A stretch of DNA of 53,926 nucleotides from a candidate division WOR-3 bacterium (lineage in GTDB: Bacteria; Hydrothermota; Hydrothermia; LBFQ01), in contig WFXS01000013.1 in assembly GCA_015490465.1 (NCBI GenBank), forward strand, positions 1 through 53,926, read 5' to 3'. The notes under the pieces were generated by a model. The model saw only the letters and a list, made by a program, of their open reading frames with translations, ran no database searches and was not told the DNA's origin. Numbering within the stretch: position 1 is the first letter of the stretch; each line of letters begins with the position of its first letter. This document shows, one piece after another, positions 8,619 through 53,417 of this stretch. A program made the translations under genes and the position numbers.

Positions 8619-10349
8619 CTACCTGACTATTTTGCGAACTACTTTCCCACCGGATACTACGAAGTAGACGCCCCTACTTCCTCTAAACCCTTTCAGGTCT
8701 CCCCGGTATACGAGTCTGCCCGACGGGTCGTACACCTCCACTTCGCCGTAAGTGTAATCTATAGCCCCACTCTCATGTACCACCAGTTCACCGGATGAAC
8801 CCACCGGCAGGGGTACGGGAAGGTTCTCGGAGAATTCGGACGTGTTCCACAGGTTATCCCGGCTCAAGGCCGTGAGGTAGAGGGACCCCGACCCCCAGTC
8901 CGGGCCAAGGCTGTCCACCTTCAGGGATACGTTGAAGGAGTTGAGTACCACCGGGACCGCCGTAAGGAAGGTTCCCCCCTCTCCGTGGCCGTTGACCTCA
9001 CCCGGACAGTTCTCGCTATCAAGCGTAGAGACGACGTAGACCTCAACGCTGTCCGCTCCCGTGTAGGCCCTTCCCCATACGAGGAGGGTCGTATCTCCTG
9101 AAGATACGTAAAGCTTTGCCGAGTCCAGATAGGGGTAGTCTATAAGGACGTTGGGGTTGTTGGTCTGTCTCAGGCCGTCGTTACACGTTACTCCGTCTCC
9201 GGCCGATCCTGAGGCACCCGACGAGTCCAGATCTATGGCGAGGCCTCCGTTATCTGAGAAGTAGTTCCGGGTAATTAGGACGTTCGTGGATATACCCCTC
9301 TTTTCGCCCACACCCACACCCGGTCCGGGCAGGTTCCACCCGTTTCCGTATATGCGGTTGTAGGATATCTCCACGTAGTCGGACCCCCCGTCTACGAACA
9401 CGCCCTTGGTCCCGTTACCGTATACGGTATTCTCCGTGATAACGGTCGTATCGGCGTCGTAACGTACCTCTATGCCGGCGCCGAAGACCCTGATGTCGGA
9501 CCCTCCGGGGTTGTTGGACGAGTGGATGAGGTTGTGCCGCAGGGTAACGTTACTGAAATAGACGTTAACGTTGTCCCCCTGATCAAAGTACCACGCACTG
9601 GCGAAGATTTCTGAGGAGTCCATCACCCAGCCGGAAGATGTCGTGGCCGAAGTGTTTCCGAACTTGACGCCATGGGAACCGCAGAAGCCGACGTACAGAC
9701 GGGAGAGTTTTCCGGACGTCCCATCGTCCACGAAGACGCAGTCCGAACGGGACGAATCCACCGGTTCGCTACCGTCGGCCGGAAGACCCACGAACAGTTC
9801 CCTCAGGGTTACGTTATGGCTTCCCGGTTTTACGCGTATCACCTGACTCCCGGAGCTTCCTCCTCCGTTGAAGAAGGCTATGCCCCTTACGAGGACGTCG
9901 CTCGCGTTTATCTCAAGCATTCCAGATATACTTGAGTTCCCGTTCAGGTCTATCTCAACTTCGGGGCAGGGGAAGTACGGTAAGGTGGCTCCGAGTGTTC
10001 CGACGGTACGAGGGTACGAGTTCCGCACCCCCGTCCACCCGGCCGAATCCGGGGCCGCCCTGTAGGAAGTATGGCACAGGTTGGTGTTCCCACGGTTGGC
10101 CGTCTGGCTCCACCCGTCTATGAGGACGGGGTCGGTTATAATCGGAAGTTTTGAGGTAAGGGTTATCCTCCACCAGCAGTTTCCGGAGGAGCATACGTAT
10201 CCGGGGTCGGTGTCAGGGATGTTGAAGGTGATCGTATCGGGGCCGGGGGATGCGTTGGCCTGATCTATGGCCCATCTAAACGTTCCGGGGGAGCCATTGT
10301 CCCCCGTACTGACCACCTGATAGGTTGCGGATAAAAGGTACAAAAACAT
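8619..10349 (-). CDS. Secreted right-handed beta-helix protein with T9SS-like C-terminal domain
   Basis: 'DNGSPGTFRWAIDQANASPGPDTITFNIP' start, PbH1-type repeats, 'NTSEFS'; C-terminal YDPSGRLV...GVYFV. Confidence 0.8.
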   Translation of the reverse strand: MFLYLLSATYQVVSTGDNGSPGTFRWAIDQANASPGPDTITFNIPDTDPGYVCSSGNCWWRITLTSKLPIITDPVLIDGWSQTANRGNTNLCHTSYRAAPDSAGWTGVRNSYPRTVGTLGATLPYFPCPEVEIDLNGNSSISGMLEINASDVLVRGIAFFNGGGSSGSQVIRVKPGSHNVTLRELFVGLPADGSEPVDSSRSDCVFVDDGTSGKLSRLYVGFCGSHGVKFGNTSATTSSGWVMDSSEIFASAWYFDQGDNVNVYFSNVTLRHNLIHSSNNPGGSDIRVFGAGIEVRYDADTTVITENTVYGNGTKGVFVDGGSDYVEISYNRIYGNGWNLPGPGVGVGEKRGISTNVLITRNYFSDNGGLAIDLDSSGASGSAGDGVTCNDGLRQTNNPNVLIDYPYLDSAKLYVSSGDTTLLVWGRAYTGADSVEVYVVSTLDSENCPGEVNGHGEGGTFLTAVPVVLNSFNVSLKVDSLGPDWGSGSLYLTALSRDNLWNTSEFSENLPVPLPVGSSGELVVHESGAIDYTYGEVEVYDPSGRLVYRGDLKGFRGSRGVYFVVSGGKVVRKIVR

Positions 10350-10493
10350 TGACCTGTCTTTATTCTAAGGGTGCCTATCGGTTCGGTGTATGGAAGGGAA
10401 CTTTATGCGTATCCACTTTACCGACGTCAAACTGGCAAAATGTTCCGTTTACGTGGAGCGCTCCCCCTTTATCCGTTTAAAATAACGGCTTAC

Positions 10494-11267: not shown

Positions 11268-11304
11268 CAGGTTGGCCCGTACTGAGACACAGGAAAACGA
11301 TATT

Positions 11305-15090: not shown

Positions 15091-15094
15091 ATCT

Positions 15095-15943
15095 TCACTC
15101 CTTTGATCCGTATCCTATCCTCCGACGCTTGACGATGAAGGTGTCGGAGGGCTTCCTCTTTCTGCGCGTCTTAACGCCGCGGGCTATCTTACCCCAGGGC
15201 GTCTTCGGTATCTTACCTTTGGTGCGACCCTCACCGCCTCCGTGGGGATGATCCACGGGGTTCATGGCGACGCCCCTGACGGCGGGACGGCGTCCGAGCC
15301 AGCGGTTTCTGCCAGCCTTACCGAGGGTGACGTTCTCGTGATCCACGTTGGAGACCTGCCCGACGGTGGCGTAACAGTTGTGATGGAACTTCCGGATCTC
15401 CTTTGAGGGGAGCTGGACGTATATCCAGTTCTCGTCCTTTGACATTATGGTGGCGTAGGTCCCGGCGGCCCTTACCAGCTGGCCGCCCTTACCGGGTATC
15501 ATCTCAAGGTTGTGGATGGGCGTTCCCTCCGGTATCTTTTCAAGGGGCAGGGCGTTACCCACCTTTATGGGAGCGTCCGGACCGGCCACCACCTCGTCCC
15601 CCACCTTCAGGCCCTCGGGCGCTATTATGTACCGCTTCTCCCCGTCCCTGTAGGCTATGAGGGCTATGAAGGCCGTCCTGTTGGGGTCGTACTCTATGGA
15701 CTTAACGACTCCCGGGACACCGACCTTGTCGTGGCGCACAAAGTCTATTATGCGGTACTTCCTCTTGTTACCACCGCCCCTGTGGCGTACGGTTATCCTC
15801 CCCTGATTGTTCCTCCCGGCCTTCTGCTTCTTGGGTTTGGTCAGGGACTTCTCCGGCTCCTCCTTGGTTACGTAAGCGGAGTAGTCCACAACACTCATCC
15901 ATCTGCGGCCGGGAGTGTAGGGTTTGTACTTCTTTATCGGCAT
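15095..15943 (-). CDS. rplB: 50S ribosomal protein L2
   Basis: [41 protein letters not shown]. Confidence 0.99.
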
Positions 15944-17530: not shown

Positions 17531-17845
17531 CTACTCCGTGATTATCTTTACCTTTATGTCCACGCCCGGAGGGAGGTCTATCTGGGATATCTTCTCTATG
17601 GTCTCCGGGGTGGCGTCCCTTATCTCTATAAGGCGAGCGTGCTTCTTGAGCCAGAAGTGTTCCTGTCCCCTCTTGTCAATGTGCGGGCCTCGTATAACGG
17701 CGAACAGCGACTTCTTGGTCGGAAGGGGGATGGGTCCGGCCACCCTCGCACCGGTGGCCTTAGCCGTAAAAACGATCTCCCGGGCCGTCCTGTCAAGGAC
17801 GGCCGGGTCAAAACTCTTAAGCTTCAGGCGGATCTTGTCCATCAC
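17531..17845 (-). CDS. rpsJ: 30S ribosomal protein S10
   Basis: [25 protein letters not shown]. Confidence 0.97.
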
Positions 17846-19386: not shown

Positions 19387-20928
19387 TTACCTTATAATAG
19401 CCCTCATATACCCTCCCGATTTCAGGATATACACCCCCTTCCTCTTCGGTCTGAAACCGGAGTACGACCCTCTGTAAATTAACCTCCCGTCCGTGCTGTA
19501 TATTTCAACTTCGCTGTCCGGCACGCTGCACATCCTCTCCTCTACGGTGAGGGAGGTATCCCCTACACCAATAACACATATGCTGCTGAACGTCAGGGGC
19601 CACGTCCTGAAGTGCAGGGTTGTGAGGTCGGTGGCCGGGTAACTCGTAAGGGTATGGCCTGTGCCGGTTGTGAAGGATAGCGATGTGGTTGATGGGTAGT
19701 AGGTACCGGATATACAGCTGGAGCATCCGCTTCCGGACGTATCCACTTTTATGAGCCATGGTTTTCCGTTCGCCCAGCCTACTAAGAGGAGGTTACCGTC
19801 GGGCATGACGGTGAGGCCGTAGATCCTTTCCCTTCCCGAAAGACCGTAGGTCTTGAGCCATAGGACGTTGCCGTTGGTGTCGGCCTTGACCAGAAAACCG
19901 TCTTCCCCTCCTGCTCCCCAGGTGGTGGTATAGCCCACGGCGTAGACGTGGCCGTTGTAGTAGAGGAGGTCGTATACGACTTCGTTCCCCGATGTGCGAA
20001 TCGTCTTTAGCCACGAGCCGTTTCCACTCGTGTCCATTTTCATAAAGTAGAGGTCCCAATCACCGGAAGATGGTTTAGCGATTCCAGATACGAAGATGGA
20101 TCCTGCAGATATGCGTGCAGTACGGGCATCACCACCCCAACCAAATCCCACTGAGTACGAAGGAATCCTCACGTTTTTGCTCCAGAGAATGTTCAGGAGA
20201 GTATCAACGGCGAATACCTTGAGTCTCGCATCAGAGGGCCAACCTCCACCACCGAAGAGAAGAACTTTGTTGTCGGATAGGATCTCAATGTCGCTTAACC
20301 CACTGTTAAGGTAGGAACTACTGCTATTACCATGAAAGGTCCTTATACGGAGAAGATTGCCGGAGGGATCGTATAAAGCCACTTTCGCGTCCGCACCATC
20401 GCATGCACAACTGGTCTCCCGTCCAGCAACTATAAAGATCCCGTTCCAGAGATCTACCTTTCGCAGGTGTGCGCCCAGATAGTTCCCGCAACAGTTCCAT
20501 CTTGATCTGGGTACCCTCCTCACCCTGTACCATACGAGGTTGAGGTTGCGATCAAACTTCGCCACGAAGTGGGATGGTGCCGGAGAGGGAGGAGCAGAGC
20601 CGTAAAACATCCCTCCCATGACCACGTAAGCGCTGTCGGGTGTGGTGATGATATGCCTTGGACCCACGGTTCCACCGAAGCCAACGAGGTTGCTCCTCAG
20701 GACGTTCCCGTCCGGGTCTATCTCAAGGAGGGCGAGGTAACTCGTCCCTGCGGAGTCAATGCGAGCGGCTACCACGATAGATGTCCCCGAAAGACTTAAG
20801 GTAGCAGATTCGGCGTATCCGCTACCGAAGGGATCGGCGTTGTAGTTCCTGCACCAGTAGGAGATCTGGGCGTCCAGACGCCCAAGCGCAAGGCCCATCA
20901 AAAGCGCTGCGGTTATGCTCCTTTTCAT
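19387..20928 (-). CDS. Secreted beta-propeller-like repeat protein with T9SS-like CTD
   Basis: Classical signal peptide MKRSITAALLMGLALGRLDA; repeats 'K.D..GN..W.KT'; C-terminal IYSTDGRLI...GVYIL. Confidence 0.75.
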   Translation of the reverse strand: MKRSITAALLMGLALGRLDAQISYWCRNYNADPFGSGYAESATLSLSGTSIVVAARIDSAGTSYLALLEIDPDGNVLRSNLVGFGGTVGPRHIITTPDSAYVVMGGMFYGSAPPSPAPSHFVAKFDRNLNLVWYRVRRVPRSRWNCCGNYLGAHLRKVDLWNGIFIVAGRETSCACDGADAKVALYDPSGNLLRIRTFHGNSSSSYLNSGLSDIEILSDNKVLLFGGGGWPSDARLKVFAVDTLLNILWSKNVRIPSYSVGFGWGGDARTARISAGSIFVSGIAKPSSGDWDLYFMKMDTSGNGSWLKTIRTSGNEVVYDLLYYNGHVYAVGYTTTWGAGGEDGFLVKADTNGNVLWLKTYGLSGRERIYGLTVMPDGNLLLVGWANGKPWLIKVDTSGSGCSSCISGTYYPSTTSLSFTTGTGHTLTSYPATDLTTLHFRTWPLTFSSICVIGVGDTSLTVEERMCSVPDSEVEIYSTDGRLIYRGSYSGFRPKRKGVYILKSGGYMRAIIR

Positions 20929-21677: not shown

Positions 21678-21745
21678 TGGGCTATCACAGGCGGGTCAAT
21701 AATTTTTGAATTTATAGAAGACATACTGACGAACCCACGGTTTGT

Positions 21746-23562: not shown

Positions 23563-25082
23563 AGACCTCCTTTCCTTTCGTACTTGCTGTTCCAGAAGCC
23601 CTCCTCAAGGGCGCGTTCTACCTCTTTGTACTTCGGCGTTAGCAAGCGGAAGTACACGTCCGGAAGGGTGTAAAGTAGGGCGAGCATTACGGGGTTCTCC
23701 TCCTTAACCCACTCCTTCCTCTGCCACTCGTAGTAGTACCCCGTTGAGGCCAGAAACAGGCGATAACTACGGCCAGAGTACCTGCTGAGGTCAAATCTGA
23801 AGACCACCGTATCCCCCGGAAGGAGAATAACCGGAAACTCCTTACCAACCCCTCCCCTCTGTATCCCGCTGACGTCCATATCAAAGGGAGATATAACAAC
23901 GGGGTTTCCCTCCCCAACTACATCCGCAACCCCCACGTAATCTATCTTCCAGAAGCCTTTCGTACCCACGAGAAGCACCTCGTACTCCCCCTCATTTAGA
24001 TAGCCCAGATCTACTGCGGCGTTGTTGTGGGCGATGGGTCCTACCTCCGAGATCTCCCCCATAACCTCACCGTTCAGTATCACCTTCAACTTTCCAAACC
24101 TTGCAAATACCCCTCTCTTCCGAAAACTACCCTTTCCCTTCTCCTCAAGCATCTTTAGGTATTTCGGATAGTTCCATCCCATATAGGCTATGCTCTGGTA
24201 GAGGAGAAAAGTCGTCATCAGCGTTTGCCTGTAGGTTATCACGAGACCCTTCCTTCCAGCCCTCTCAACCTCTATCCTTACCCTTAAGGTCTCCGGAGTT
24301 AGGAGGTTGTTGGAATCCGCCCAGCTCCTGTACTCGTACCCGTCCCTTACCTTTACCATATCTGTCCTGTTCCCATCCTCCGTCAGAAACGCCTTCACTG
24401 GCCTCTCGTTCTTCACCCTCAGGAAGGCCCTCTCGTCTGGTGTTGTATATACTTCCTCGTCTTCACCCTTTTCAACGAGTATCAGTTTCTGATCCACTAT
24501 GTACTGGGTCTCAAGGGCTTCGTTCTTGGCCACTACGGAAAGGGTACCTGCAGGAGGTGTCCTCTCAAGCATATCAATATCGGTTTCCATCAGGGACTTC
24601 GCTATGGACATGGAGAAGCCCTCCGCCTCAAGGTTCCACCTGTGACCGTCATACGTGTAATACACCGGACAGGAGCCGAAAGCGGCCTTTACTGTGACAA
24701 ATGCCAAAGGTGTCCAACTTATAGCACACATTACAACGTCTACTGTTATCAAAAGGGTGCGAACTTTGTTAAGTGATAAAGAGTACTCGTTGACTTCCAC
24801 CAGGGCTATGCTATCCTTGTGAAGTTTAAACCTTCCCTTCTCTACGAGCCTTCTTGAAGGAGAGTAAAGGCTTCCCTTAAAAGTTATGTAATCTCCCTCC
24901 ACCTTTATGCTCTCCGCCACGTATACGCTTCCGTCCCACATGTGGAACTTTATGCCTGCCGCTTTCCCACTTTTCAGGCGTTCCGGCTTCACTAAGTATC
25001 TATCAAGGTGTTTGTACGTGCATCCTCCTACCACCGAGATAAGGGCCAGGACAAGAATTGCGGCCTTAATCTTCCCCTTCAT
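23559..25082 (-). CDS. Hypothetical lipoprotein (GSCP-motif family)
   Basis: Lipobox VGGC; internal TM-like segment followed by GSCPVYYTYDG...EAEGF...NEALETQY; GYYYEW near the C-terminus. Confidence 0.7.
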   Translation of the reverse strand: MKGKIKAAILVLALISVVGGCTYKHLDRYLVKPERLKSGKAAGIKFHMWDGSVYVAESIKVEGDYITFKGSLYSPSRRLVEKGRFKLHKDSIALVEVNEYSLSLNKVRTLLITVDVVMCAISWTPLAFVTVKAAFGSCPVYYTYDGHRWNLEAEGFSMSIAKSLMETDIDMLERTPPAGTLSVVAKNEALETQYIVDQKLILVEKGEDEEVYTTPDERAFLRVKNERPVKAFLTEDGNRTDMVKVRDGYEYRSWADSNNLLTPETLRVRIEVERAGRKGLVITYRQTLMTTFLLYQSIAYMGWNYPKYLKMLEEKGKGSFRKRGVFARFGKLKVILNGEVMGEISEVGPIAHNNAAVDLGYLNEGEYEVLLVGTKGFWKIDYVGVADVVGEGNPVVISPFDMDVSGIQRGGVGKEFPVILLPGDTVVFRFDLSRYSGRSYRLFLASTGYYYEWQRKEWVKEENPVMLALLYTLPDVYFRLLTPKYKEVERALEEGFWNSKYERKGGL

Positions 25083-25800
25083 CCTTTATAACCTCCGGTT
25101 TTGCTTTACGCCCTATCCCGATATCCGTAATGCTAAGTATAACCCCGACGCTTACCCGAACGTCCCTCCCGTAAAACCTTTCAATTGTTATGTTCTCCAA
25201 CTTATAATAGGTGTTATACCAGTATATCTGGGGAACGACTGCGATGTATAAGTTCATACCGTTGTCCGTGATATAAACGTATTCAATCGGGAAATTCCAC
25301 TGTCTTCTACAACTCATGTATTCAAAGGCCAGCGAAAGCACACCTTTCCTCTTAAGCTTTCCGTATACGCTGAAGACGCGTTCCCTACCCGAAGCTAAGT
25401 CGTTTATACAGAGCATCCATCCCCAATAAATACCGATGGAGAATCCGCCAGCGCTTGCACTCCAGAAGAGGGACAAAGGGTATATATCAAAGTCAAGCAG
25501 ACGCCTCACATCGCCAACTAAGGAGTAGCCGTACTCTATAGATGAAAACATACCGAGTCGGATGGTGTTAAACAGCTTAGGACCGACTTGCACGCCTAGA
25601 CTTCCCTGAAATGTAGGGTAGCCACTTCTGTAAACCACAACCGTATCTGCGTAGCCGTAGTAAGGCAGGGAAGTTTTATAAATACCTTCCAACCTTTCAT
25701 AAACATATCCCCCACCTCCACCTACCCTCAACCATCCACCCAACCCTACATCCCCCAACGGCGGAACGTATCCAAACGTCAAAAGGGCAACACCCGACAT
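25066..25800 (-). CDS. Hypothetical beta-rich (outer-membrane?) protein
   Basis: 244 aa, Gly/Tyr-rich amphipathic strands; SD GAGGT. Confidence 0.6.
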   Translation of the reverse strand: MSGVALLTFGYVPPLGDVGLGGWLRVGGGGGYVYERLEGIYKTSLPYYGYADTVVVYRSGYPTFQGSLGVQVGPKLFNTIRLGMFSSIEYGYSLVGDVRRLLDFDIYPLSLFWSASAGGFSIGIYWGWMLCINDLASGRERVFSVYGKLKRKGVLSLAFEYMSCRRQWNFPIEYVYITDNGMNLYIAVVPQIYWYNTYYKLENITIERFYGRDVRVSVGVILSITDIGIGRKAKPEVIKDEGED

Positions 25801-25810
25801 TTCTACCTCA

Positions 25811-26467
25811 TCACCACACCCTCACATCCACTCCCAACCCCAAACGCGGACCGGAGAGGTCAAATTTCTTGCAGTCCCCCGAGCATTCTAAAAGGACATC
25901 AAAATCCCTGTCCAAAAAAATATCATTGCCTTCTTTATCCTTACCCTTGTAGTTTTTAGCGCTGACCATGGGGTAGCTCAGCGAGATGTAAGGGGATATC
26001 CTTCCAAAGGGGAATTTTACGGATATGGAGGGATTGAAACCGAGAACCAAAGGCGCGCTGAACTGGTAGGTCTTTTTCTCCTCGTGTGGGCTTGGATAGG
26101 AGTAGTAATCGTAATACTCGTACTTAGCGCGGGAATATACGACAGGTACGCCGATGGCAGCCTCTAACATCACCCTGCCCAGAGCGGTCTCCAGAGATGC
26201 GAAAGGCTCAAAGAACACGGAAGAGACGTCTATATGCCTATAGTACTTGCTGGACGAGCTTGCACCACCCCATCTGACGAGCATCATATCGTACCGGAGT
26301 GTTAGACCCGTCTGAAGACCAAACGGCCATGAGTAGTACGCCCTGAAACCCCCTCCGAAGGTCCTGCCTAAGTCAATGCGGGCGTACCCATCCGAGGAGG
26401 TCGTATCCCAGCTGTACATCTCACCGGTTGCAACACCACCGTATAGGATAGGCCCTACGTAGATCAT
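25811..26467 (-). CDS. Putative outer-membrane beta-barrel protein
   Basis: Amphipathic strands; C-terminus DLSGPRLGLGVDVRVW ends in an aromatic beta-signal. Confidence 0.65.
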   Translation of the reverse strand: MIYVGPILYGGVATGEMYSWDTTSSDGYARIDLGRTFGGGFRAYYSWPFGLQTGLTLRYDMMLVRWGGASSSSKYYRHIDVSSVFFEPFASLETALGRVMLEAAIGVPVVYSRAKYEYYDYYSYPSPHEEKKTYQFSAPLVLGFNPSISVKFPFGRISPYISLSYPMVSAKNYKGKDKEGNDIFLDRDFDVLLECSGDCKKFDLSGPRLGLGVDVRVW

Positions 26468-27213
26468 CTTCCACCTCCTACGTTCAACCTTACGAAGACC
26501 CTCAAACGCGCGCCGCTGAGGTTGTCCCTGAAGTAGAAGGTAGGCCAGTGATAATCCTCAGTCGGCCAGATAAACATACTTTCACTGGAAAAAGTAAGTA
26601 CGGCGTTGTAAGTGGTGTCCCATGTGGCTCCTCCATCCAGATCTTTCCAGATTGCCTTCACACTTCCGTTGTACCTCTGGAGTACCATGTGGTCGTATCC
26701 GGCGTTTAAGCCCACGCTAAGGAGCGGGTGTACCCTGTAGGCCACCTCAAGGGCAAAACCTCCCCCTACCGTTCTGTTGGGTCTCATGGTGGAGTTAAAA
26801 GTTATGTTAAAACCATACGCCGTATATGAAGTTTTCCACGACAACTTTAACAGGGGGTAGAGAAGTCTCGTGTACGCGGCGAACTCTACAGGCCCCACCT
26901 CCTTCCTGACTCCAAAGACTGCACCTGCGATAACACCCGAAAGGTTAGAACTCATGGTATACTCTTCCCCGTAGTCGGGAAATTTGGCCCACACCTTCCT
27001 GTTCAAAAACACGGGACGGGCATCTACGAGGAACAGAAAACCGCCCACACCTACACCTGCTGCGACGCCGTACTCGGGGACGAAGGAGACCACATCCACT
27101 GTGTATTCCACCTGATCCGCCTTGTACACGCTATCCTTATAGCGTGCGTACTCGTTCCACTGATCCATCGCAAAGTAATCCATTCCCCCATAGGGCTGTA
27201 GAATAAACATCAT
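26464..27213 (-). CDS. Putative outer-membrane beta-barrel protein
   Basis: Amphipathic strands (GGGFALEVAYRV, SVGLNAGY); C-terminus NLSGARLRVFVRLNV resembles that of the neighbouring gene. Confidence 0.65.
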   Translation of the reverse strand: MMFILQPYGGMDYFAMDQWNEYARYKDSVYKADQVEYTVDVVSFVPEYGVAAGVGVGGFLFLVDARPVFLNRKVWAKFPDYGEEYTMSSNLSGVIAGAVFGVRKEVGPVEFAAYTRLLYPLLKLSWKTSYTAYGFNITFNSTMRPNRTVGGGFALEVAYRVHPLLSVGLNAGYDHMVLQRYNGSVKAIWKDLDGGATWDTTYNAVLTFSSESMFIWPTEDYHWPTFYFRDNLSGARLRVFVRLNVGGGR

Positions 27214-28073
27214 AGCCCACCTCCTTTTGAGTTTGTCGCTACCCCCGGCACCCAGCGCAGGCCGGGGACGTTGAGCTGCATATAAACCTCAAGGTCGGCG
27301 GTGTAAGGACCCGATCCGCTTATGCTTAGCACCCTGACAACGCCGAAGTAGTCGTTGTTGTCCATAGAGCCGTAGCCGGTGGACGTGTTATCCGCCCAGA
27401 AGAAGTAAAAACCTCCGGAAGCGACCTGTCTAACGACGCGATAGTTACCTATCCCAGGGGCCAGGCTACCGCTCGTATTAGGTGTGAAGGCCAGCTCCAT
27501 CCTGGCCTGACCGACCGAAGTCGCGCTTGCGTCCCTGAACTCGGGCGTACCGTAGGAGTAGTTGTTGTAGAATACGAACCATCCCGTGTTGGGAGCGGTA
27601 ATATCCACGGATGACTGCGGTACGAGAACCACATCACCCGCTGAGAAGTCCATTTTAACCCACGAATAACCCGATATGCCGTCGTGGGATACCAGTCCGG
27701 ATACGGAGGCGGAAACGGGTGTCAGGTCTATGGACACCCTCTTCTCGTCGCCCTCGTTGTACGCGGAGACCTCCACCCTCTGGCATACGTGGCTGGCACC
27801 CGGTATTGTGTAGGTTGTATCTATAATCCGCCTTATCTCGTTTCCGTCGCAATATATCTTGTACCCTTTCGCGTTCTCAACGGAACTCCAGATTATCCTC
27901 AGGTCTTGCCCGTCGTTTACGGCCGTTTTTGATACGATCGTGGGACTGCCGCCGAGAGGGGGAGGTGTCTCCGGACCCGTGGGGCCTCCACTGTCGGACT
28001 CCTTCTTACATCCTCCAAGGAGCAAAGCCCCCGTAAGTAGGACACTAACAATCGTGCAGATGTATGTTCTCAT
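27210..28073 (-). CDS. Surface lipoprotein with an FN3-like domain
   Basis: Lipobox LGGC followed by KKESD; Pro-rich linker; 'IIWSSVENAKGYKIY...VSAYN' FN3-like pattern. Confidence 0.7.
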   Translation of the reverse strand: MRTYICTIVSVLLTGALLLGGCKKESDSGGPTGPETPPPLGGSPTIVSKTAVNDGQDLRIIWSSVENAKGYKIYCDGNEIRRIIDTTYTIPGASHVCQRVEVSAYNEGDEKRVSIDLTPVSASVSGLVSHDGISGYSWVKMDFSAGDVVLVPQSSVDITAPNTGWFVFYNNYSYGTPEFRDASATSVGQARMELAFTPNTSGSLAPGIGNYRVVRQVASGGFYFFWADNTSTGYGSMDNNDYFGVVRVLSISGSGPYTADLEVYMQLNVPGLRWVPGVATNSKGGGL

Positions 28074-31509: not shown

Positions 31510-31553
31510 ATTCTACCGTTGAACTTCACGATGATAGCAGGTAGAGAGTCCTG

Positions 31554-31575
31554 AGTTTAAGTTTAACCTTAAACT
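31554..31575. promoter_or_regulatory. 22-bp near-perfect palindrome (operator candidate)
   Basis: AGTTTAAG-TTTAAC-CTTAAACT, in the divergent PLD / M1 peptidase intergenic region. Confidence 0.4.
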
Positions 31576-31842
31576 GTCCAGATGTACGATTGCTGGTGTT
31601 AATGTCCTTAAAGTTAAGAATTGGATAACTAAAGTGATACACCGAGAGCGTTCAATGAATAGAGGGACTATGGGGATATTAGAAGATTTCCCAGTTCCAT
31701 GATGAACCGTGTAACGCGTAAGAGAAAGAAGGTAGGAGGGCATAGATCTGCATTCCGGTACACTTTCAAAAGACTGGCATTAACTTCGTATTCTGACCCG
31801 TACCGTGGTAGTACCCTAAGACTTCCACCGTAAAATACTCCT

Positions 31843-33744
31843 ATGTTGGTTTTCCTTACGTCCTTCGCCGTGGAAGACCTCTGGCAACCGGAGGAGCCTT
31901 TCTATCTGAAGGAACATAAACGCTCTTTCCGTTCTTACGGATACGGCCTCTACGACTGGCCGGACGTTGAAATCCCACCCTACGACGTACGGAAGTACAC
32001 GATCAGGATGGACCTATGGGGCGGATACGTCCACCTGGCCCACACTACGGTTAAGATCGTGGGCAGAAGTACGGTTGACACCGTACGGCTTTACTTCGGA
32101 TGGGACCCCGTGGACAGCGTAAAGTACAACGGATCTTCCGTACCTTTCTCAACCGTGGGTACGGATTCGGCCCGGAGGCTGGTTATTCCCCTTCCCTCCC
32201 CCCTCTACCCCGGAGATACGGGGTACGTGGACGTCTTCTACCACGGTACACCCCCGACGTCCGGATGCACGAGCTTCGGCGGTGGGTTATCCATACGGTC
32301 ATCCTCGTGGGTGTACGCGGACAACGAGCCTTACGGTCTCAGGTGCTGGGTACCTTCCTACGACCAGCCCTACGAAAAGGCGGACGAAGGAGTGGAATTC
32401 TACATCACCACGGACACCAGCCTTGAGGTCGTGGCCAACGGTGTACTTCAGGATACCACGACGACCGGTAGCCTGAGGACGTGGCACTACGCCCACGGTC
32501 ATCCCATAACCCCTTACCTGATAACCTTCGCCATCAGGGATCTCGTTTACAACGAGTGGACGTGGACGTACGGTTCCATTACCATGCCCGTGAGGGCGTG
32601 GTTGATAGCCTCGGACCCCGATTACTCGTGGGGAAGCAGCCTCACGGAGATGCTCACGGCCTTTTCCATAAGGTACGGCATTTATCCCTTTGCCGACGAG
32701 AAGTACGAACAGAGCGTCGTCCTTCCCGGAGGGTGGGCGATGGAGGACCAGACCAACTCCTTCTTCGGAGGATACTACGCCGGATGGGTGGAGGCCCACG
32801 AGTTGGCCCACCAGTGGTGGGGGAACGATGTGACGTGCGGCACCTTCAAGGACATATGGCTTAACGAGGGGTTCGCCACGTACAACGAAATAATCTGGCA
32901 GGAGCATACGGGGGGCTGGAGCGCTTACAGAAGCTATTACGACAGGCGGGCGGATTCGGCCATATTCACCTACGCCTCCAACCCCGGCCAACCCGTCTAC
33001 AACCCCGGCCCGGACATAAGAGACGCCTTTTCGGTCTACACGTACAACAAGGGTGCGGCCGTATTGCACATGCTCCGCTATATCCTTGACAAGGACACCT
33101 CCCTTTTCTTCGGCGCTCTCAGGTACTACAGGAGCAGACACAGTGGTTCCTACGCCCTCACCAGCGACTTCGTAAACGACGTCCAGACCTTCACGGGCAG
33201 AGACCTGACGTGGTTCTTTGACCAGTGGGTATATCAACCGGGATGGCCTGTGTACGACGTACGATGGAATAGGTTTGATGACGGTGGAAGCTGGAGATTG
33301 CTCCTCCGGGTAGAACAGGTACAACCTGCCGGTGCGCCCACCTTCAAAATGCCCATAGAGGTTAAGGTATTTACGCCGTCGGGAGATACCACGGTCGTCA
33401 TATGGGACAGTCTTGACGTCCAGCACTTCTGGATAACGCTCAGCGACAGGCCCGACAGCCTTCACTGGGACCCGGAGAACTGGGTACTGGAGCAGCATAC
33501 TCTAACCTACGACCCAGCCCTTAACCTGAGCGAGAAACCGGAGGTGGCCGTAAGGGACGTGGTGGTAAGGGTGAAAGGCAGGGATGTGGTGGTTTACGGT
33601 GTGAACGGGCGGTTTCCGGTATCCGTTTACTCCTCATCGGGTCGTCTTATATCTCGTGGCGATGGAAAGGTGAACGTTACCCTATCCCCCGGTGTATACT
33701 ACGCCGTCAGTAAAGACAGGGTGAAGGCCTTCGTCGTGAAATGA
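31843..33744 (+). CDS. Secreted M1-family aminopeptidase with T9SS-like CTD
   Basis: WAMED (GAMEN-like), HELAHQWWG...WLNEGFATY, YNKGA; CTD VYSSSGRLI...PGVYY. Confidence 0.92.
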   Translation: MLVFLTSFAVEDLWQPEEPFYLKEHKRSFRSYGYGLYDWPDVEIPPYDVRKYTIRMDLWGGYVHLAHTTVKIVGRSTVDTVRLYFGWDPVDSVKYNGSSVPFSTVGTDSARRLVIPLPSPLYPGDTGYVDVFYHGTPPTSGCTSFGGGLSIRSSSWVYADNEPYGLRCWVPSYDQPYEKADEGVEFYITTDTSLEVVANGVLQDTTTTGSLRTWHYAHGHPITPYLITFAIRDLVYNEWTWTYGSITMPVRAWLIASDPDYSWGSSLTEMLTAFSIRYGIYPFADEKYEQSVVLPGGWAMEDQTNSFFGGYYAGWVEAHELAHQWWGNDVTCGTFKDIWLNEGFATYNEIIWQEHTGGWSAYRSYYDRRADSAIFTYASNPGQPVYNPGPDIRDAFSVYTYNKGAAVLHMLRYILDKDTSLFFGALRYYRSRHSGSYALTSDFVNDVQTFTGRDLTWFFDQWVYQPGWPVYDVRWNRFDDGGSWRLLLRVEQVQPAGAPTFKMPIEVKVFTPSGDTTVVIWDSLDVQHFWITLSDRPDSLHWDPENWVLEQHTLTYDPALNLSEKPEVAVRDVVVRVKGRDVVVYGVNGRFPVSVYSSSGRLISRGDGKVNVTLSPGVYYAVSKDRVKAFVVK

Positions 33745-34698: not shown

Positions 34699-35271
34699 AT
34701 GCGCAGGTTTGCGGTTATCGTAGTGTTGCTTACCCTCCCATCCTGTACAGAGCGGAAGTACACGGAGAGGTTGTTGCCGGGTCGGCTCTACGTTGAGGTG
34801 CAGGACACGAGTATTACGTCTCTCACGTTGATTAGGGACGGGAAAACGGTTTACGAGGGGAACGTGAGGACCTTCTACAGGACATCCTACTACGCGGGAA
34901 GCAGGTACGGGAACCTGAAGGTGTACCTGCCCACCGGGTACGGGTGCGCCCGTGCCGACGTGGAGTTGTCGTCCACGGGGTGCGGTGTGGTGGTCGTTCC
35001 GGATACCCCCTCCACCTCCGGTGGATGTCCCGACTGCGACTCCATGGAGACCCGGAGAACCACGATAATAGACGTCCTCACGTGGGAAAGACCCGTGGCC
35101 GTCAAGATGGGGGATAGGTGTCTACCCGTTTACGCGACGGGCAGGGTGAGGGCGTTTTACGTGGACAGCCTCCTGCCGGGCAGGTACCTGTTAGTGGTGG
35201 GTGGGGATACGGATACGGTCTTCGTTTCTTCCGAGAAGTGTACTAAAGTAAACGCGGGAGGTAACCCATGA
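34699..35271 (+). CDS. Hypothetical Cys-rich lipoprotein
   Basis: Signal peptide with lipobox LPSC; CPDC motif. Confidence 0.65.
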   Translation: MRRFAVIVVLLTLPSCTERKYTERLLPGRLYVEVQDTSITSLTLIRDGKTVYEGNVRTFYRTSYYAGSRYGNLKVYLPTGYGCARADVELSSTGCGVVVVPDTPSTSGGCPDCDSMETRRTTIIDVLTWERPVAVKMGDRCLPVYATGRVRAFYVDSLLPGRYLLVVGGDTDTVFVSSEKCTKVNAGGNP

Positions 35272-35798
35272 GCCTGATCTGGGGGATATGGCTCGGTTTC
35301 GGATTGAGCGGAGGGGAAACAAAGGAACCTGTACCGCGGGGAAGTATTACCTTCGGTGCCGATCTTCACGCCGGCCTTATGCTGGCCCGAACGTTCACGT
35401 TTCAGTTCTCCCTTTACCCCAACGTACAGAGTGCGGGGACGTGCGTGGACAGCTGGGTAAGGGGTAAGGCATCCCTGCTCCTCGGAAACCACGAGTTTGG
35501 ATTGATCGCTTCTCCCCTGTGCGTTTTGAACAGCGGCAGGTACACGGTGTACAGGGACGGTTATACCGAGAAGTACGAGTACAGGACTGGCGCCTACACC
35601 TACGGTGTGGGCGGATTCTACAACATCCGGCTCACCTTTGTAAAGAGCGTCAGGGTCTACGTGGGAATAGACTTCCTCTATCCCGTAAAACCGGTGACCG
35701 TCCCGTTAAAAACCGGTGAGAGTAAGGCCCCCCACGTCTCCTACCCGACCGTGGGCGTACACGTGGGATGGCTGTGGGGAAAGAGGATCAGGCTTTAA
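35268..35798 (+). CDS. Small putative beta-barrel protein
   Basis: ATGA overlap with the upstream gene, SD GGAGGT; amphipathic strands ending TVGVHVGWLW. Confidence 0.55.
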   Translation: MSLIWGIWLGFGLSGGETKEPVPRGSITFGADLHAGLMLARTFTFQFSLYPNVQSAGTCVDSWVRGKASLLLGNHEFGLIASPLCVLNSGRYTVYRDGYTEKYEYRTGAYTYGVGGFYNIRLTFVKSVRVYVGIDFLYPVKPVTVPLKTGESKAPHVSYPTVGVHVGWLWGKRIRL

Positions 35799-39571: not shown

Positions 39572-41728
39572 TCAGCGGATCGTGATCCTGTAGCTCCGGT
39601 CTCCGCTGACGACGAAGTACACTCCCCTTCCGAGGGTAACCCTCTGGCCGGAGGTAAATCTCCCTATCAGGCGGCCGTCAACCGCGTAAACCTTGGCATC
39701 CTTTGCAAACCGTACGCTTCTTCCCGATACGGTATAAGGGAGATGGTTCACCCTTGACCTCGGAGTCTCCTTAACGGATAGCCCCTCGTCGTTACCGCAC
39801 GGCCCCGCATCCACCACGACGAGGCTGTAGGGCTGAACTCCACCGGGTTTGGGGTTGTTAAGCGCCCTGCCGTAGACCTTCACCCTCCAGGTGCCCCGCT
39901 TCGCGGGAGCGACGTACACGACCTCAACGGGGTTCAGGTAATCCCTGCCGCTGGGGTTGGGTACCGAAACGCCGTCGTTGAAGACGTTACCGTGGTACAC
40001 GTTCCCGTCCGCCCCCTCAACTATCAGGTCAAGGTCGTTCTGGAGGTAGGTGCCGGGTGCGTCCGTCCACACCAGAACTATCTTAACGTAGTCCGTGTAC
40101 ATGGACGTGTTACAGCCAACGGTGACGTCGTAAACTGCCGTATCACCAGCGGATATGCCTATGCTGTCGTCCACCACGAACAGACGATGGCGGTACTCCG
40201 GAGGCATGTCGGCGAAGTAGAGCGCCCGGCTCAGGTTTATACCTCCGAACCCTATCTCGCTGTTCGGTGGCACTGGTTCGTACTCCAGAGGCTGGGCGGA
40301 GGCTATGAGCATGGCCTTAAGCAGGGAACCCTGCGGGATGAAGCCGTTGGCCGTGTCCTTCGTACCGCTCGGATACCACCCCTCACGGAAGTACTGGCGT
40401 ACGAGGAGGGCGGCACCGGCTGCCGCAGGAGCGGCCATAGACGTACCCTGAAAACCGCTACTTACCACGGAGCAGGAGTAGGTCCTGTCCGTACGGTTCC
40501 GGGCGGACGCTATGAAGGAGGGTGAGTAGTTGTAGTCTCCTCCGGGGGTCAGGATCTCAGGTTTGATTCTGCCGTCGTATGTGGGACCCTGCGACGAGTA
40601 GTAGGCGCGACGCTCGTGGGGTTTGGTGAACTCGTCAAAGGCACCCGTTGCTCCCACCGTAAGGGCGTTCTTGGCCGTAGCAGGAGACCCCACAGTACCG
40701 TCCTCAGACGCACCGGAGGAACTGCTGTTGCCGGAAGAAATAGAGACGAGAGCATCGGGATTGTCCCACATAAAGGCGTCTACGTCACGGGCTGAGGAAC
40801 TGTAGGTGTTGAAGGAGGAACCCCAGGAGAAGTTTATCACCCTCGCCCCACGGGTGTAGAAGTCGGTCAGGATATCGTATATAGACGAGCTGTAACATAC
40901 ACTACCGCAGCTACCACAGGAGGGCCCTCCGGCATCTCCGAATACGATTTTGGCACCGTAGGCCATACCCTTGTAGTTGTAGAAGATGGCACTTGCAGAA
41001 TCAGGATTACCGAGGAAAGTGCCGCTCACGTGCGTTCCGTGGGAATAGCTGCACGATGCGAAATCGTCGGCATAGCTGGATAACACCATGTAATCCAGAA
41101 CCTTCCTGTGGGTGGGTCCGGGGGTTATCACAGTAGTATCCCTGAAGAAGCAGGAGTAGTAGTCCAGGCCTGTATCCATAACACCACCGATTTCACCCTC
41201 ACCGTTTATACCGTGCGCCCATACGAGAGAATCCCCTTCAACGCGGGTCTGTATGTACCATCGGGTGTTGTTGTTCCAGAGGTACTTTCTCAGGTCCGGT
41301 TCTACCTTAGATACTGCGTCCATGGAGGCCAGACGGCGGGCCACGTAGAGGGCGTCACCCGGAGGAACGGAGACTTTAAAGCGCGGCATGTGGGACGATG
41401 GGAACCTCTCAGGTGTCAGGCCGAAGGAAGATATGGCGTTGAACAGATCCCCCTCGTCCTCTCCCGGATAACCGGATACTATCAGACGGACCTTACCGTT
41501 GTACACGGCATCCTCTATCTTCCCCTGGTACAGGAGCTCGCTCACCTTCAGGTTCTCCGGAACGGGACGCACGTTCGCCCCACGGAGTTTGAGGCCCTCC
41601 GGGACGTCTGCTATGTACCCGTAACCCGGAACGTATTCGTACACTCGTACACCGTACGATCTCAGAGTTCCGGCATCCACGCCTTCACCGTTGACCAGAA
41701 CCCATCCGCCTATCAGCACCGTAAACAT
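39572..41728 (-). CDS. Secreted subtilisin-like S8 peptidase (KP-43-like) with T9SS-like CTD
   Basis: MDTG, HGTHVSG, GTSMA catalytic triad; SPATAKN; LVWTD/NDLDL domain; CTD VYAVDGRLI...GVYFV. Confidence 0.93.
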   Translation of the reverse strand: MFTVLIGGWVLVNGEGVDAGTLRSYGVRVYEYVPGYGYIADVPEGLKLRGANVRPVPENLKVSELLYQGKIEDAVYNGKVRLIVSGYPGEDEGDLFNAISSFGLTPERFPSSHMPRFKVSVPPGDALYVARRLASMDAVSKVEPDLRKYLWNNNTRWYIQTRVEGDSLVWAHGINGEGEIGGVMDTGLDYYSCFFRDTTVITPGPTHRKVLDYMVLSSYADDFASCSYSHGTHVSGTFLGNPDSASAIFYNYKGMAYGAKIVFGDAGGPSCGSCGSVCYSSSIYDILTDFYTRGARVINFSWGSSFNTYSSSARDVDAFMWDNPDALVSISSGNSSSSGASEDGTVGSPATAKNALTVGATGAFDEFTKPHERRAYYSSQGPTYDGRIKPEILTPGGDYNYSPSFIASARNRTDRTYSCSVVSSGFQGTSMAAPAAAGAALLVRQYFREGWYPSGTKDTANGFIPQGSLLKAMLIASAQPLEYEPVPPNSEIGFGGINLSRALYFADMPPEYRHRLFVVDDSIGISAGDTAVYDVTVGCNTSMYTDYVKIVLVWTDAPGTYLQNDLDLIVEGADGNVYHGNVFNDGVSVPNPSGRDYLNPVEVVYVAPAKRGTWRVKVYGRALNNPKPGGVQPYSLVVVDAGPCGNDEGLSVKETPRSRVNHLPYTVSGRSVRFAKDAKVYAVDGRLIGRFTSGQRVTLGRGVYFVVSGDRSYRITIR

Positions 41729-41761
41729 GACACCGTTATTATAGGGCGGAGAGATAACCCG

Positions 41762-51171: not shown

Positions 51172-51191
51172 CGGGTGTAGAATAAACGTAT

Positions 51192-53417
51192 ATGTTCCTG
51201 TTCGCGCTCAGTGTTATTGACGTTTCCATCCTCAGCGAAGGAAAGGTAATCCCGAAAAATACACCGTGGGTCCTTACCCTGACCTTTTCGCTTTCCTCCT
51301 CCTCCGACCCCGTTAACCACGTTGAGATAAATCTGGGCGACAGCGCCTCCTTCAGCACCTATACCACGGACGGAGCCTTCAACTACGCATCCGTCAGTAC
51401 GACGTCTAACACGATTACGCTCTCTGCGTTCACCTTTTCACCCGGTGGGAACGCCCGTTTGAGTTTCAGGGATGTCGTGATAAGCAGGAGCGAGGGGTTA
51501 AAGAACCTGTCCGTTAAACTGGCCAACAGTACGGATACCGTGAATTTAAGCGTTCCGGTTGTGGTAATAAGAGAGGATACCACTGTGCCTCTCAAGTTCT
51601 TCCATAACGTACTCTCGGAGAGGCCGGTTCTTATAAACGAGGTCGTGCGTGTAAGGGGTGTCGTCAGTGCCGTATTTGGAAACAAGACTTACATTCAGGA
51701 CACTTTCCGGGATACGGTCGCCGGTCTGGTCCTCTACGGAAGCATCGGCGTTAACCCCGGAGAACTTATAGTCGCGGAGGGTGAATTTGAACCCTACAGG
51801 GGTCTTGAGGAGATATCCTACCCCACGGTACTCTACAGGGAGGTGGTGGGTGTGCCGGAGCCGGTGGTTGTGGACGGGTTGAACAGGGCGAGGGAGAGGT
51901 ACTCCGGCGTCCTGATCAGGGTGGACAGCGTGAGGTTTGATACGACTCCCCTCGTCAGGGTCCCGGTGGGTGAGAACGTACCCATAGTTGACAGGTACAA
52001 CAACTCCGGAAACCTCTACCTTGACAGGTACGGGAACGTGGAGAGCTTCCCGCCTCCGGATACCATATTTGACCTCGTGGGGGTAGTGGACGAGGACAGC
52101 GGGAGTGCCGGTAACATATACCGCATAGTTCCCCGTGAGCCTTCGGACCTCATCTTCTACAACTCCGTTATGGTACTCTCTCAGGCACCCTACTTCGTAC
52201 ACAGGGGGCAGGCGTCCACGTGGAAGTTCCACCTTTCCTCGTTTAACCCCGTGGCGAAACTGCGGGTCTGCTCCGACGGTATAACTCCCTCCGAGATGGG
52301 TGCTGCAAAACTGGGAAGCCGATCACCGGACAACGTCATTACTCTGGCGGATACGGCATGTGCCGAGTTCCTGAACCCGGCCTTTACGGCGGACACTCTG
52401 ACCCTCTCCCTTGATCCTAAAGACGTGGACTCAATTACCGTTCTCCTCTACTCCGCTCTTGATACGGCCGACATATACAGGCGTTCCGTATTCTCTCCCC
52501 GTCTATATTTCACTACTCCCATATCCGACATTCAGGCCTACGGCGAGGATTACTCCTCCAATCTCGTAGGTCAGACCGTAGTGGTCGGAGGTGTGGTACT
52601 GGCGGACGCGTCCGCCTTCAGTACGAGCAATACGTCAACCTACCTCTGGGACGGTACGGGAGGAGTGAACCTCTATTCGTCCCAGTTCCTCGGATTAAAA
52701 GAGGGAATGCTAATAGTGGCACTAGGCACGGTTACGGAGTACAACGGCCTTACCGAGGTTCTCTTCTCCTCGGTTAAGGTACTCGGGAACGGGGAGGTCC
52801 CCTCCCCCACCAAACTGCAGAAGGGTCAGGCCCTGAACGAAGATCTGGAGGGTCATCTCGTCAGGGTGGACACGGTTATGGTAACATCTCCCCCTTCCTA
52901 CGCCGGTATAGGGAAGTCCTTTACGGTTTACAACGGAACCGTTCCCATAACGGTTTACGTTTACCCAACTACGGGTATTGACGTATCCCAGATCAAAGTC
53001 GGAGACTACGTCAGCATCACCGGTATCGTTGGCCAGTACGATAACACTCCGCCCTACACGTCCGGTTATCAGCTTCTGCCCCGCAAGTCCGTGGACCTCA
53101 TGGCCGTCCCCGGAGAGGCCTACGAGGCGGAGAACCTTGAGGTCAAGATATCCCGGAACGTCTTCATAGCCGGGAGGGAGACCGCCCGCATAGAGGTTAG
53201 AGGCCCCAAGGGTACGTACTCCATCAGGGTGTACGACGGCATGGGAAGGCTGGTCAAAACGATAGTTGAGGGGGGTGGTGCCGGAATACACGAGTGGGAC
53301 GGTACGAACATGGCTGGAAGAAGGGTTCCCCCCGGAATATACGCCCTGGTGGTTGTGGTCAACACCCTTGAGGGTAGCCAGAAGGTCGTACGCCCCATAG
53401 TTGTGGTGGCGAAGTAG
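51192..53417 (+). CDS. Secreted tandem OB-fold protein with FlgD-Ig/T9SS-like CTD
   Basis: Two OB modules (VRVRGVV...YIQD...EPYRGLEEI; VVVGGVV...TEYNGLTEV...GIVGQY...LLPR); C-terminal VYDGMGRLV...WDGTN..G..VPPGIY. Confidence 0.75.
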   Translation: MFLFALSVIDVSILSEGKVIPKNTPWVLTLTFSLSSSSDPVNHVEINLGDSASFSTYTTDGAFNYASVSTTSNTITLSAFTFSPGGNARLSFRDVVISRSEGLKNLSVKLANSTDTVNLSVPVVVIREDTTVPLKFFHNVLSERPVLINEVVRVRGVVSAVFGNKTYIQDTFRDTVAGLVLYGSIGVNPGELIVAEGEFEPYRGLEEISYPTVLYREVVGVPEPVVVDGLNRARERYSGVLIRVDSVRFDTTPLVRVPVGENVPIVDRYNNSGNLYLDRYGNVESFPPPDTIFDLVGVVDEDSGSAGNIYRIVPREPSDLIFYNSVMVLSQAPYFVHRGQASTWKFHLSSFNPVAKLRVCSDGITPSEMGAAKLGSRSPDNVITLADTACAEFLNPAFTADTLTLSLDPKDVDSITVLLYSALDTADIYRRSVFSPRLYFTTPISDIQAYGEDYSSNLVGQTVVVGGVVLADASAFSTSNTSTYLWDGTGGVNLYSSQFLGLKEGMLIVALGTVTEYNGLTEVLFSSVKVLGNGEVPSPTKLQKGQALNEDLEGHLVRVDTVMVTSPPSYAGIGKSFTVYNGTVPITVYVYPTTGIDVSQIKVGDYVSITGIVGQYDNTPPYTSGYQLLPRKSVDLMAVPGEAYEAENLEVKISRNVFIAGRETARIEVRGPKGTYSIRVYDGMGRLVKTIVEGGGAGIHEWDGTNMAGRRVPPGIYALVVVVNTLEGSQKVVRPIVVVAK

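Follow-up and report, generated by a model that had tools for sequence, protein, structure and literature searches.

Very short, uncharged hydrophobic N-termini in a hydrothermal-vent bacterium of candidate division WOR-3: a possible stripped-down Sec-type signal peptide

How little of a signal peptide can suffice to send a bacterial protein out of the cytoplasm? The question is raised by a stretch of 53,926 nucleotides from a candidate division WOR-3 bacterium (contig WFXS01000013.1 of assembly GCA_015490465.1; "the window" below means this whole stretch), in which five genes for proteins with a putative C-terminal sorting domain begin with only about eight hydrophobic residues. The window is contig C13 of a genome (G000 hereafter) of 2.05 Mb in 126 contigs, 91.7% complete and with a GC content of 55%. 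As judged from the encoded proteins, most of those predicted to leave the cytoplasm in this hydrothermal-vent bacterium, and in many of its relatives, begin with about eight hydrophobic, uncharged residues. We consider, with a probability of roughly 0.6, that these short starts are true N-termini which would act as a stripped-down Sec-type signal peptide devoid of the n-region.

The five genes of the window and the promoter-like boxes in front of them are the following.

8619..10349, minus strand: beta-helix protein with a C-terminal sorting domain (PF13229 Beta_helix, E 1.7e-11); its start, MFLYLLSA, is encoded at 10326-10349.
10362..10367, minus strand: TAGAAT, resembling a -10 box and ending 12 nt before the ATG at 10349.
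29740..31509, minus strand: PLD-like nuclease with a C-terminal sorting domain (PLDc_2, E 5.3e-37); its N-terminus is MKVFVVLTA, with Lys at position 2.
31510..31515, minus strand: TAGAAT box with no gap to the ATG at 31509, hence too near for a transcript to start there and of doubtful promoter function.
31831..31836, plus strand: TAAAAT, resembling a -10 box and ending 6 nt before the ATG at 31843.
31843..33744, plus strand: M1-family peptidase with a C-terminal sorting domain (Peptidase_M1, E 6e-28); its start, MLVFLTSFA, is encoded at 31843-31869.
39572..41728, minus strand: subtilase (S8) with a C-terminal sorting domain (Peptidase_S8, E 7.4e-41); it starts MFTVLIGG.
41738-41743, minus strand: TATAAT box, 9 nt before the ATG of the subtilase gene (41728).
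51178-51183, plus strand: TAGAAT box, 8 nt before the ATG at 51192.
51192..53417, plus strand: DUF5689/OB-fold protein (Pfam) with a C-terminal domain resembling FlgD_ig and the PorZ C-terminal domain (match to the C-terminal stretch of PorZ, E 4.9e-07); it starts MFLFALSV.

An initial annotation had described these five starts as ultra-short and uncharged. All five read as written, although the protein starting at 31509 bears a Lys at position 2, and the alternative start proposed for it at 31503 is a GTT, which is no start codon. The claim that none of the starts can be extended holds, given that in-frame stops begin 18, 6, 12, 36 and 9 nt upstream of 10349, 31509, 31843, 41728 and 51192, respectively; so does that of a -10 box at each start, with a TAGAAT, TAAAAT or TATAAT ending 12, 0, 6, 9 and 8 nt before the ATG. 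The mature parts of the five proteins are plausible secreted enzymes.

Short hydrophobic starts are also found on other genes of the window, which in addition contains two genes with classical signals that serve as an internal contrast (SD, Shine-Dalgarno; ORF, open reading frame).

25066..27213, minus strand: three SD-led ORFs of unknown family (26464-27213, 25811-26467 and 25066-25800) with short hydrophobic starts, downstream of the classical lipoprotein gene.
35268..35798, plus strand: SD-led ORF without a Pfam family, which starts MSLIWGIWLGFGLSGG.
19387..20928, minus strand: protein with a C-terminal sorting domain and a classical signal peptide (MKRSITAALLMGLALGRLDA, with the putative cut before Q), an internal contrast; TIGR04183 scores 16 bits, below its cut-off of 23.
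27210..28073, minus strand: lipoprotein without a Pfam family, with a classical signal and a lipobox (…LLLGGC), an internal contrast.

The ORFs that start at 27213, 26467, 35268 and 25800 had been listed as putative barrels lacking normal signal peptides. They do begin with short hydrophobic starts, but they are led by GGAGGTGG Shine-Dalgarno elements and hence are no leaderless genes, and because the Pfam search gave no match for any of the four, the label "barrel" is unverified. The classical signals of the proteins starting at 20928 and 28073 were read as described; the contrast drawn from them, according to which SD-led genes keep a classical signal, fails genome-wide, where 70 of 516 SD-led genes have a short start.

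How far, then, does the pattern extend? Our home-made gene set of G000 comprises 1924 genes at a coding density of 90%, and a start was called for 1828 of them. A short start was defined as Met plus about six to seven hydrophobic residues without Lys or Arg, and a strict set of 137 genes was delimited by a stop at most 10 codons upstream together with an SD or a -10 box, a definition that also bars K/R/D/E/H at positions 2-7. The same pipeline was run on samples of 313-400 kb from five other genomes of the phylum (G105, G020, G031, G093 and G159). A hidden Markov model (HMM) of the C-terminal domains (CTDs) of the window found 93 ORFs at E <1e-3 among 8621 open frames of G000; built from this genome, it is insensitive in other families (6-13 matches per 313-400 kb), and the counts from these were kept out of the statistics.

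A short start is present in 282 of the 1828 called proteins, namely 79 of 111 CTD proteins (82 of 116 with a looser cut-off) and 203 of 1717 others, a pattern far beyond chance. The genome-wide collection of CTD and outer-membrane proteins, suggested as a check by the initial annotation, thus bears out what the window had hinted at. Outside the CTD set, the carriers include BamA, SprA and many outer-membrane proteins, together with an M16 peptidase and Skp-, SurA-, TolC- and DsbA-like proteins, these last carriers being labelled from sequence by the analyst; 34 further short-start proteins end in F/W/Y, as is typical of outer-membrane proteins. Orthologues of BamA, SprA and the Skp-, SurA- and TolC-like proteins need export through the inner membrane everywhere, and it is on these that the short start sits. 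Alongside the short type there are 151 classical-looking signals and 62 lipoproteins. A lipobox-like Cys at positions 9-12 occurs in just 7 short starts, compared with 62 classical lipoprotein signals; therefore, lipoproteins mostly retain the long signal. The idea that classical signals would mark horizontally acquired genes was rejected, the median GC of CTD genes being 0.568 with a short and 0.566 with a classical start (Mann-Whitney p 0.22).

The composition of the short start is distinctive. In the strict set, about 85% of the residues at positions 2-6 are L/I/V/F/M/W, and position 7 is rich in A/S/L/G, mostly A/S/L. The frequency of K/R at positions 2-8 is 0.0, compared with 19% in other proteins, a zero that partly follows from the way in which the set was defined; independently of that definition, 282 proteins fall in the short-start class without K/R. 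Trp occupies position 3 in 17 of the 137 proteins, 9-fold above a background of 1.4%, giving starts such as M-L-W, M-I-W and M-V-W, and similar Trp-3 starts were seen in G031, which belongs to another family. Gln is found at position 8 in 10% of the strict set against 1.6% in the background, and the pair [ASGT]-Q is seen somewhere in residues 1-11 of 22 of the 137 strict-set members, compared with 23 of 1324 other proteins; among the genome's classical signals, an end in A followed by Q is frequent. Further downstream, K/R remains rarer at positions 9-25 (0.093 in the strict set, 0.148 in the others).

Could these N-termini be an artefact, the true ones being longer and masked by sequencing errors, mis-called starts, an alternative code or recoding? 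The start caller is admittedly crude and was proven wrong for some genes. Nevertheless, of the 137 genes in the strict set, 71 have an in-frame stop at most 3 codons upstream and 103 have one at most 5 codons upstream, with TAA, TAG and TGA all occurring, and recognisable SD or -10 elements precede the ATG. Contigs from two public vent metagenome runs cover the two starts at 31509 and 31843. Over window positions 31200-32200 those of run X2 show 0 differences, and those of run X3, from a different study, show 1 difference, at 31485, that keeps the starts of both divergent genes; upstream read errors, which might have undone the case, are ruled out for these two starts by the agreement of independent assemblies. 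Moreover, the pattern is conserved in the orthologues of 30 relatives and at 60 BamA loci. An artefactual origin is close to refuted. In the X3 contig, 1672 other letters replace the 270 intergenic bases at 31524-31795, between the two divergent CTD genes, which is strain-level variation in their shared promoter region. As for the start as part of the mature fold, an AlphaFold2 model of the M1 peptidase, run on 22 orthologues, gives residues 1-42 a predicted local distance difference test score (pLDDT) <50 and begins its fold near residue 47; being unstructured in the model, the hydrophobic start would be no structural element of that fold.

A second doubt concerns the mode of initiation, since the initial annotation implied a link between short and leaderless starts. 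We considered a start leaderless-type when TAnAnT or TAnnAT ends 4-11 nt before the start codon without an SD. By this rule, the 1828 called starts include 753 leaderless-type ones, an upper estimate because the caller favours such sites, and 516 SD-led ones, and it seems that leaderless or near-leaderless genes are very common in G000. A look for RNA runs that contain the stretch, which might have located transcript starts, turned up none. Short starts might consequently be a by-product of leaderless translation at the mRNA level, for instance of U-rich codons after a 5'-terminal AUG, with no role in export, and it is true that their share is the highest of the three start classes among genes with a -10-like box (158 of 753). 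However, the 70 SD-led genes mentioned above have them as well, 483 of the 753 leaderless-type genes fall in the "other" class without a short start, and short starts are concentrated on extracytoplasmic proteins, with unequal frequencies. The strict set itself comprises 46 SD-led and 91 leaderless-type genes; the trait is therefore independent of initiation mode, leaderless translation was rejected as its cause, and a mere mRNA-level effect has very little probability.

The C-terminal domain of these proteins is about 60-80 residues long, contains a G-[VI]-Y motif and has a basic terminus, and AlphaFold predicts it as 7 strands at residues 574-632 of the M1 peptidase. It falls short of the curated models: TIGR04183 gives a single one of the six window proteins 16 bits (cut-off 23), FlgD_ig gives one protein 25.9 bits (cut-off 27), and PF18962 has no match among the window CTD proteins. 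A profile of the six sequences, searched against the PDB, retrieves constructs of the gingipain (RgpB) CTD as 4 of the top 5 matches, with a best E of just 0.017. In turn, SprA, a translocon component of the T9SS (type IX secretion system), is encoded in G000 on a frame of 1856 aa that matches SprA_N (PF14349) with 60.6 bits, rising to 90.9 when neighbouring stretches are counted in. Altogether, these data weakly suggest that the window CTDs belong to the T9SS type A family.

If the short start were an export signal, it should evolve and be distributed as one. Orthologues of the M1 peptidase, taken from genomes as near as the genus and as far as the class, keep a short hydrophobic start while its sequence drifts freely, and BamA orthologues likewise conserve the hydrophobicity of the start with a variable sequence. 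In best-hit pairs with the sampled relatives, a short start is found in 13 of 502 G000 orthologues of "other", apparently cytoplasmic, proteins and in 19 of 58 orthologues of proteins with a classical or a lipoprotein signal. A comparison of N-terminal lengths with homologues, which had been proposed as a check, was made for G105, an AT-rich phylum mate: 5 of 7 orthologues of its classical-signal proteins are short in G000, where the alignment is preceded by a median of 15 residues fewer. In the G105 sample, 71 signals are classical and 20 are of the lipoprotein type; 8 of the 10 CTD proteins carry a classical signal, and the 9 proteins called "mini" look cytoplasmic. Short and classical signals are both present in the samples of G020, G031, G093 and G159. 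As a rough contrast only, 66 outgroup M1-peptidase loci closed upstream (among L029-L108, with 12 rows whose frame is open at the locus edge omitted) comprise 38 classical, 4 lipoprotein-like, 19 "mini" and 5 other starts; the choice of start is crude here, and many of the "mini" ones are long K/R-less stretches or wrong starts.

BamA allows the broadest view: of 151 phylum genomes, 149 yielded it, and in 60 its 5' region was read. The longest of its presequences has 27 residues, with K/R, and the shortest has 7, without; those lacking K/R measure about 7-16 residues. One BamA match in a genome of the class, G123:C86:4373-6580, contains one in-frame TAG. The occurrence of the short signal, its upper length limit, its conservation and its distribution in the phylum are established by these observations.

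What machinery would handle such starts? G000 encodes one SecY, one SecA (a 1010-aa frame with an ordinary N-terminus), one YidC and one signal peptidase I (SPase I). SecY aligns with that of E. coli end to end, and SPase I has a TTG start, one transmembrane segment, a GSMEDTF Ser box and a KR (Lys) box. The initial annotation had advised inspecting SecA, SecY and LepB for lineage-specific changes: the proteins look ordinary, and nothing was seen in them that explains the short signals.

With the signal recognition particle (SRP), matters stand differently. PF00448, the SRP54-type GTPase domain of Ffh and FtsY, has 0 matches in G000, where the Ffh and FtsY of a phylum mate, used as tblastn queries, match at E 0.19 at best, and an HMM specific to the phylum, applied with no filters, does not exceed 17 bits. 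Among 31 genomes up to class level, some of them scored 100% complete, neither the Ffh M domain (PF02978) nor SRP RNA (RF00169; the search did not include the large model RF01854) was found in any. In a sample of 151 genomes of the phylum, the 38 of the class yielded no Ffh/FtsY match better than E 9.8e-7, and the three weak class matches examined are one AAA_22 protein and two MeaB GTPases. The 113 genomes outside the class comprise 95 with matches at E 4e-40 or better, 4 with weak ones only and 14 with none; strong matches typically come as two per genome, on frames of about 290 and 435 aa. On the control side, Ffh/FtsY were detected in 14 of 14 control genomes and RF00169 in 12 of 14, as well as in 4 of 5 SRP-positive phylum mates. 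The whole class thus appears to be without SRP, which describes an absence in the genomes searched and is no proof of absence. Families f12, f25, f27 and f24 also have no strong SRP matches, and families f18, f22 and f26 have a single weaker one (E about 1e-40 to 1e-47).

YidC might be expected to offset such a loss by means of a C-terminal ribosome-binding tail. It was not seen: in the class YidC is present as a single copy without C-terminal extension, matches end at query residues of about 450-458 of 459, and the frames are no longer than elsewhere. In the YidC of G000 (G000:C106:11930-13306), a lysine-rich stretch of about 35 residues directly follows the first transmembrane segment, and the C-terminus bears no basic tail.

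Does the absence of SRP account for the short signals? On the evidence of BamA it does not, and SRP loss was rejected as their cause. In the window's class, 11 of the 17 genomes that could be resolved have a presequence without K/R, but so do 16 of the 27 resolved genomes of other families that are SRP-positive; conversely, among 9 further SRP-less or weak-hit genomes it is present in 1, a doubtful case, the remaining 8 being classical, and it was seen in none (0 of 5) of those whose single SRP match is weaker. Set apart from these counts were a class locus without an h-region by the rule used (G014) and an SRP-positive locus that runs off the edge (G138). The trait is thus scattered over the phylum, and its most extreme form is seen in the family of the window. 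The suggestion of altered Sec/SRP recognition is strengthened as far as SRP is concerned, with no Ffh or FtsY found in the class, yet SRP loss does not track short BamA signals.

It is against this background that one may ask whether the short start is a signal in the Sec sense at all. It could instead be a tag that serves a route or factor distinct from canonical recognition by SecA and SecYEG, possibly remaining uncleaved; a lineage-specific chaperone or receptor, a co-translational, ribosome-bound SecA, or additional signals in the early mature region would be candidates. By the usual rules the start is too short and too weakly hydrophobic, Trp-3 is a preference atypical of Sec signals, SecY is free of any prl-like change that would explain tolerance, and, with neither SRP nor FtsY detected in the class, targeting would have to be rewired at least for membrane proteins. 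However, no candidate factor emerged, G000 having one SecA and one YidC, and the YidC of the SRP-less class no C-terminal extension; short BamA signals are distributed across SRP-positive and SRP-less genomes as just described; and the continuum of lengths in BamA indicates a shortened ordinary signal. We regard such a separate route as unlikely.

A trimmed Sec signal is favoured because of the carriers on which it is found, its specificity, its signal-like evolution, the continuum of lengths in BamA, the motif of a small residue and Gln, and the presence of an ordinary Sec machinery. Such a signal would consist of Met plus five to seven strongly hydrophobic residues, often with Trp at position 3, followed by a small A/S/G/T and frequently by Gln. 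Its only positive charge would be the free alpha-amino group of the retained Met, SecA and an ordinary SecYEG, through its lateral gate, would recognise the hydrophobic stretch, and cleavage after the small residue would probably fall to the single membrane-anchored SPase I; Sec dependence, cleavage and its position are what we infer from the sequences. In this sense, the minimal export signal put forward in the initial annotation is supported comparatively, by the carriers, the lack of upstream extension, the character that is kept and the replacement of relatives' classical signals; no new system is indicated, a shortened Sec signal fitting best.

Several points weigh against this shortened Sec signal. 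In the strict set, the stretch of uncharged residues that follows Met has a median length of 7 (interquartile range 6-9), compared with 14.5 in the classical signals of the genome, which places it at or below the lower bound of the 7-15 residues given in textbooks for the h-region. The mean Kyte-Doolittle hydropathy of the best 6-residue window is 2.5-2.7 in short starts and 3.2 in classical signals; hydrophobicity is thus no higher, compensation by this means was discarded, and, because the run is both shorter and no more hydrophobic, the trade-off between length and hydrophobicity offers no obvious rescue. By textbook geometry, a peptide of about eight residues is too short to reach from the cytoplasmic face to the SPase I active site at the outer face. 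Where E. coli SecY has I408 and F286, the aligned residues of the G000 protein are Ile and Phe, the ones altered in prlA4 (I408N and F286Y), and a relaxed SecY of the prlA4 type was rejected on these grounds. The [ASGT]-Q motif is confined to 16% of the strict set, and the plant-type glutaminyl cyclase (PF05096) has no match in G000 at its 91.7% completeness, a search that leaves an M28-type cyclase untouched. Some genes, e.g., LepB and SecA, were mis-started by our caller. Finally, passages of one source state that a zero or negative charge of the n-region reduces transport and that the h-region needs a minimal length and hydrophobic density (PMC5875014).

A bolder statement may be ventured, tentatively and as something we hold rather improbable: that the class has shed SRP and FtsY and, with much of the phylum, exports most of its envelope and secreted proteins by an uncharged tag of about eight residues lying outside the rules of n-, h- and c-regions. 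Under it, the alpha-amine of Met and Trp-3 might anchor the tag, with recognition possibly taking place at the ribosome or by SecA together with early mature features. Protein targeting in the lineage would then be rewired, beyond mere trimming.

Two of the most settled generalisations in protein targeting are at stake, the tripartite signal peptide and the universality of SRP. In the passages available from the literature searched, supplementary files being outside its scope, neither such short signals nor a free-living SRP-less bacterial lineage is described, and SRP is called conserved in all organisms or domains in parts of two sources (PMC7844537, PMC8230904). A lineage with K/R-less presequences of about eight residues on most of its exported proteome would provide a natural lower bound for the Sec-type signal. 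Standard predictors, as well as surveys of secretomes and carbohydrate-active enzymes, may badly under-count the exported proteins of these vent bacteria, and such very short tags would be candidates for secretion engineering. Furthermore, the apparent absence of Ffh, FtsY and SRP RNA in the class raises the question of how inner-membrane proteins are targeted without SRP.

Regarding the surroundings of these genes, the window has housekeeping flanks at 789-2849, 15095-15943 and 17842-19062 (EF-G, ribosomal protein L2, EF-Tu), and its other neighbours include a GH1 glycosidase, MgtE, MlaE, a biotin carboxylase, TsaD and a class V-type fructose-1,6-bisphosphatase. GC content dips to 0.48-0.51 at 20001-28000, compared with about 0.55-0.58 elsewhere. 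This low-GC stretch is a run of minus-strand ORFs without a Pfam family (20925-25082, the three short-start ORFs and the lipoprotein gene up to 28073) and adjoins the classical-signal CTD gene at 19387-20928.

How do these starts compare with known systems? T9SS type A cargo is approached by the size of the CTD, the G-[VI]-Y motif, the basic end, the gingipain RgpB profile matches, the encoded SprA and a predicted 7-strand sandwich, which matches the 7-strand fold described for the type A CTD in passages of PMC11285876. The curated models TIGR04183 and PF18962 are not reached, however, and a short signal variant takes the place of the Sec-dependent signal peptide which, according to parts of PMC12618676, known T9SS cargo bear.

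As for a life without SRP, passages of two sources report its loss to be tolerated by mutants of Streptococcus mutans or undergone by mitochondria (PMC8546722, PMC8321541). Membrane-protein biogenesis without Ffh and FtsY is common to these cases and ours; the difference is that here a whole free-living class is concerned, without detected Ffh, FtsY or SRP RNA, and with a single YidC lacking a C-terminal ribosome-binding tail.

The Q-rule, i.e., Gln at position +1 after SPase I cleavage, cyclised to pyroglutamate, holds in Bacteroidetes and not in the entire FCB (Fibrobacteres-Chlorobi-Bacteroidetes) group, as stated in part of PMC5837995. The A-then-Q ends of the classical signals of G000 and the enrichment of short starts in [ASGT]-Q at positions 7-10 recall this rule, whereas the tendency is a partial one here, seen in 16% of the strict set, and no plant-type glutaminyl cyclase was found in the genome.

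The prl suppressor strains of E. coli, altered in SecY or SecA, export signal-defective precursors, and thus share with our case an export that would proceed despite a crippled or minimal signal. Theirs is a laboratory mutant phenotype; here the prlA4 positions of SecY are unaltered and the short signal is the norm of the lineage.

The classical signal for Sec and SPase I is a further close counterpart. It differs in its positive n-region, absent here, and in a presequence of about 18-30 residues compared with about 7-10. Like it, the short start is N-terminal, hydrophobic and variable in sequence, sits on periplasmic, outer-membrane and secreted proteins, and is followed by a small residue and then by an early mature region poor in K/R, in a genome that encodes SecYEG, SecA and SPase I.

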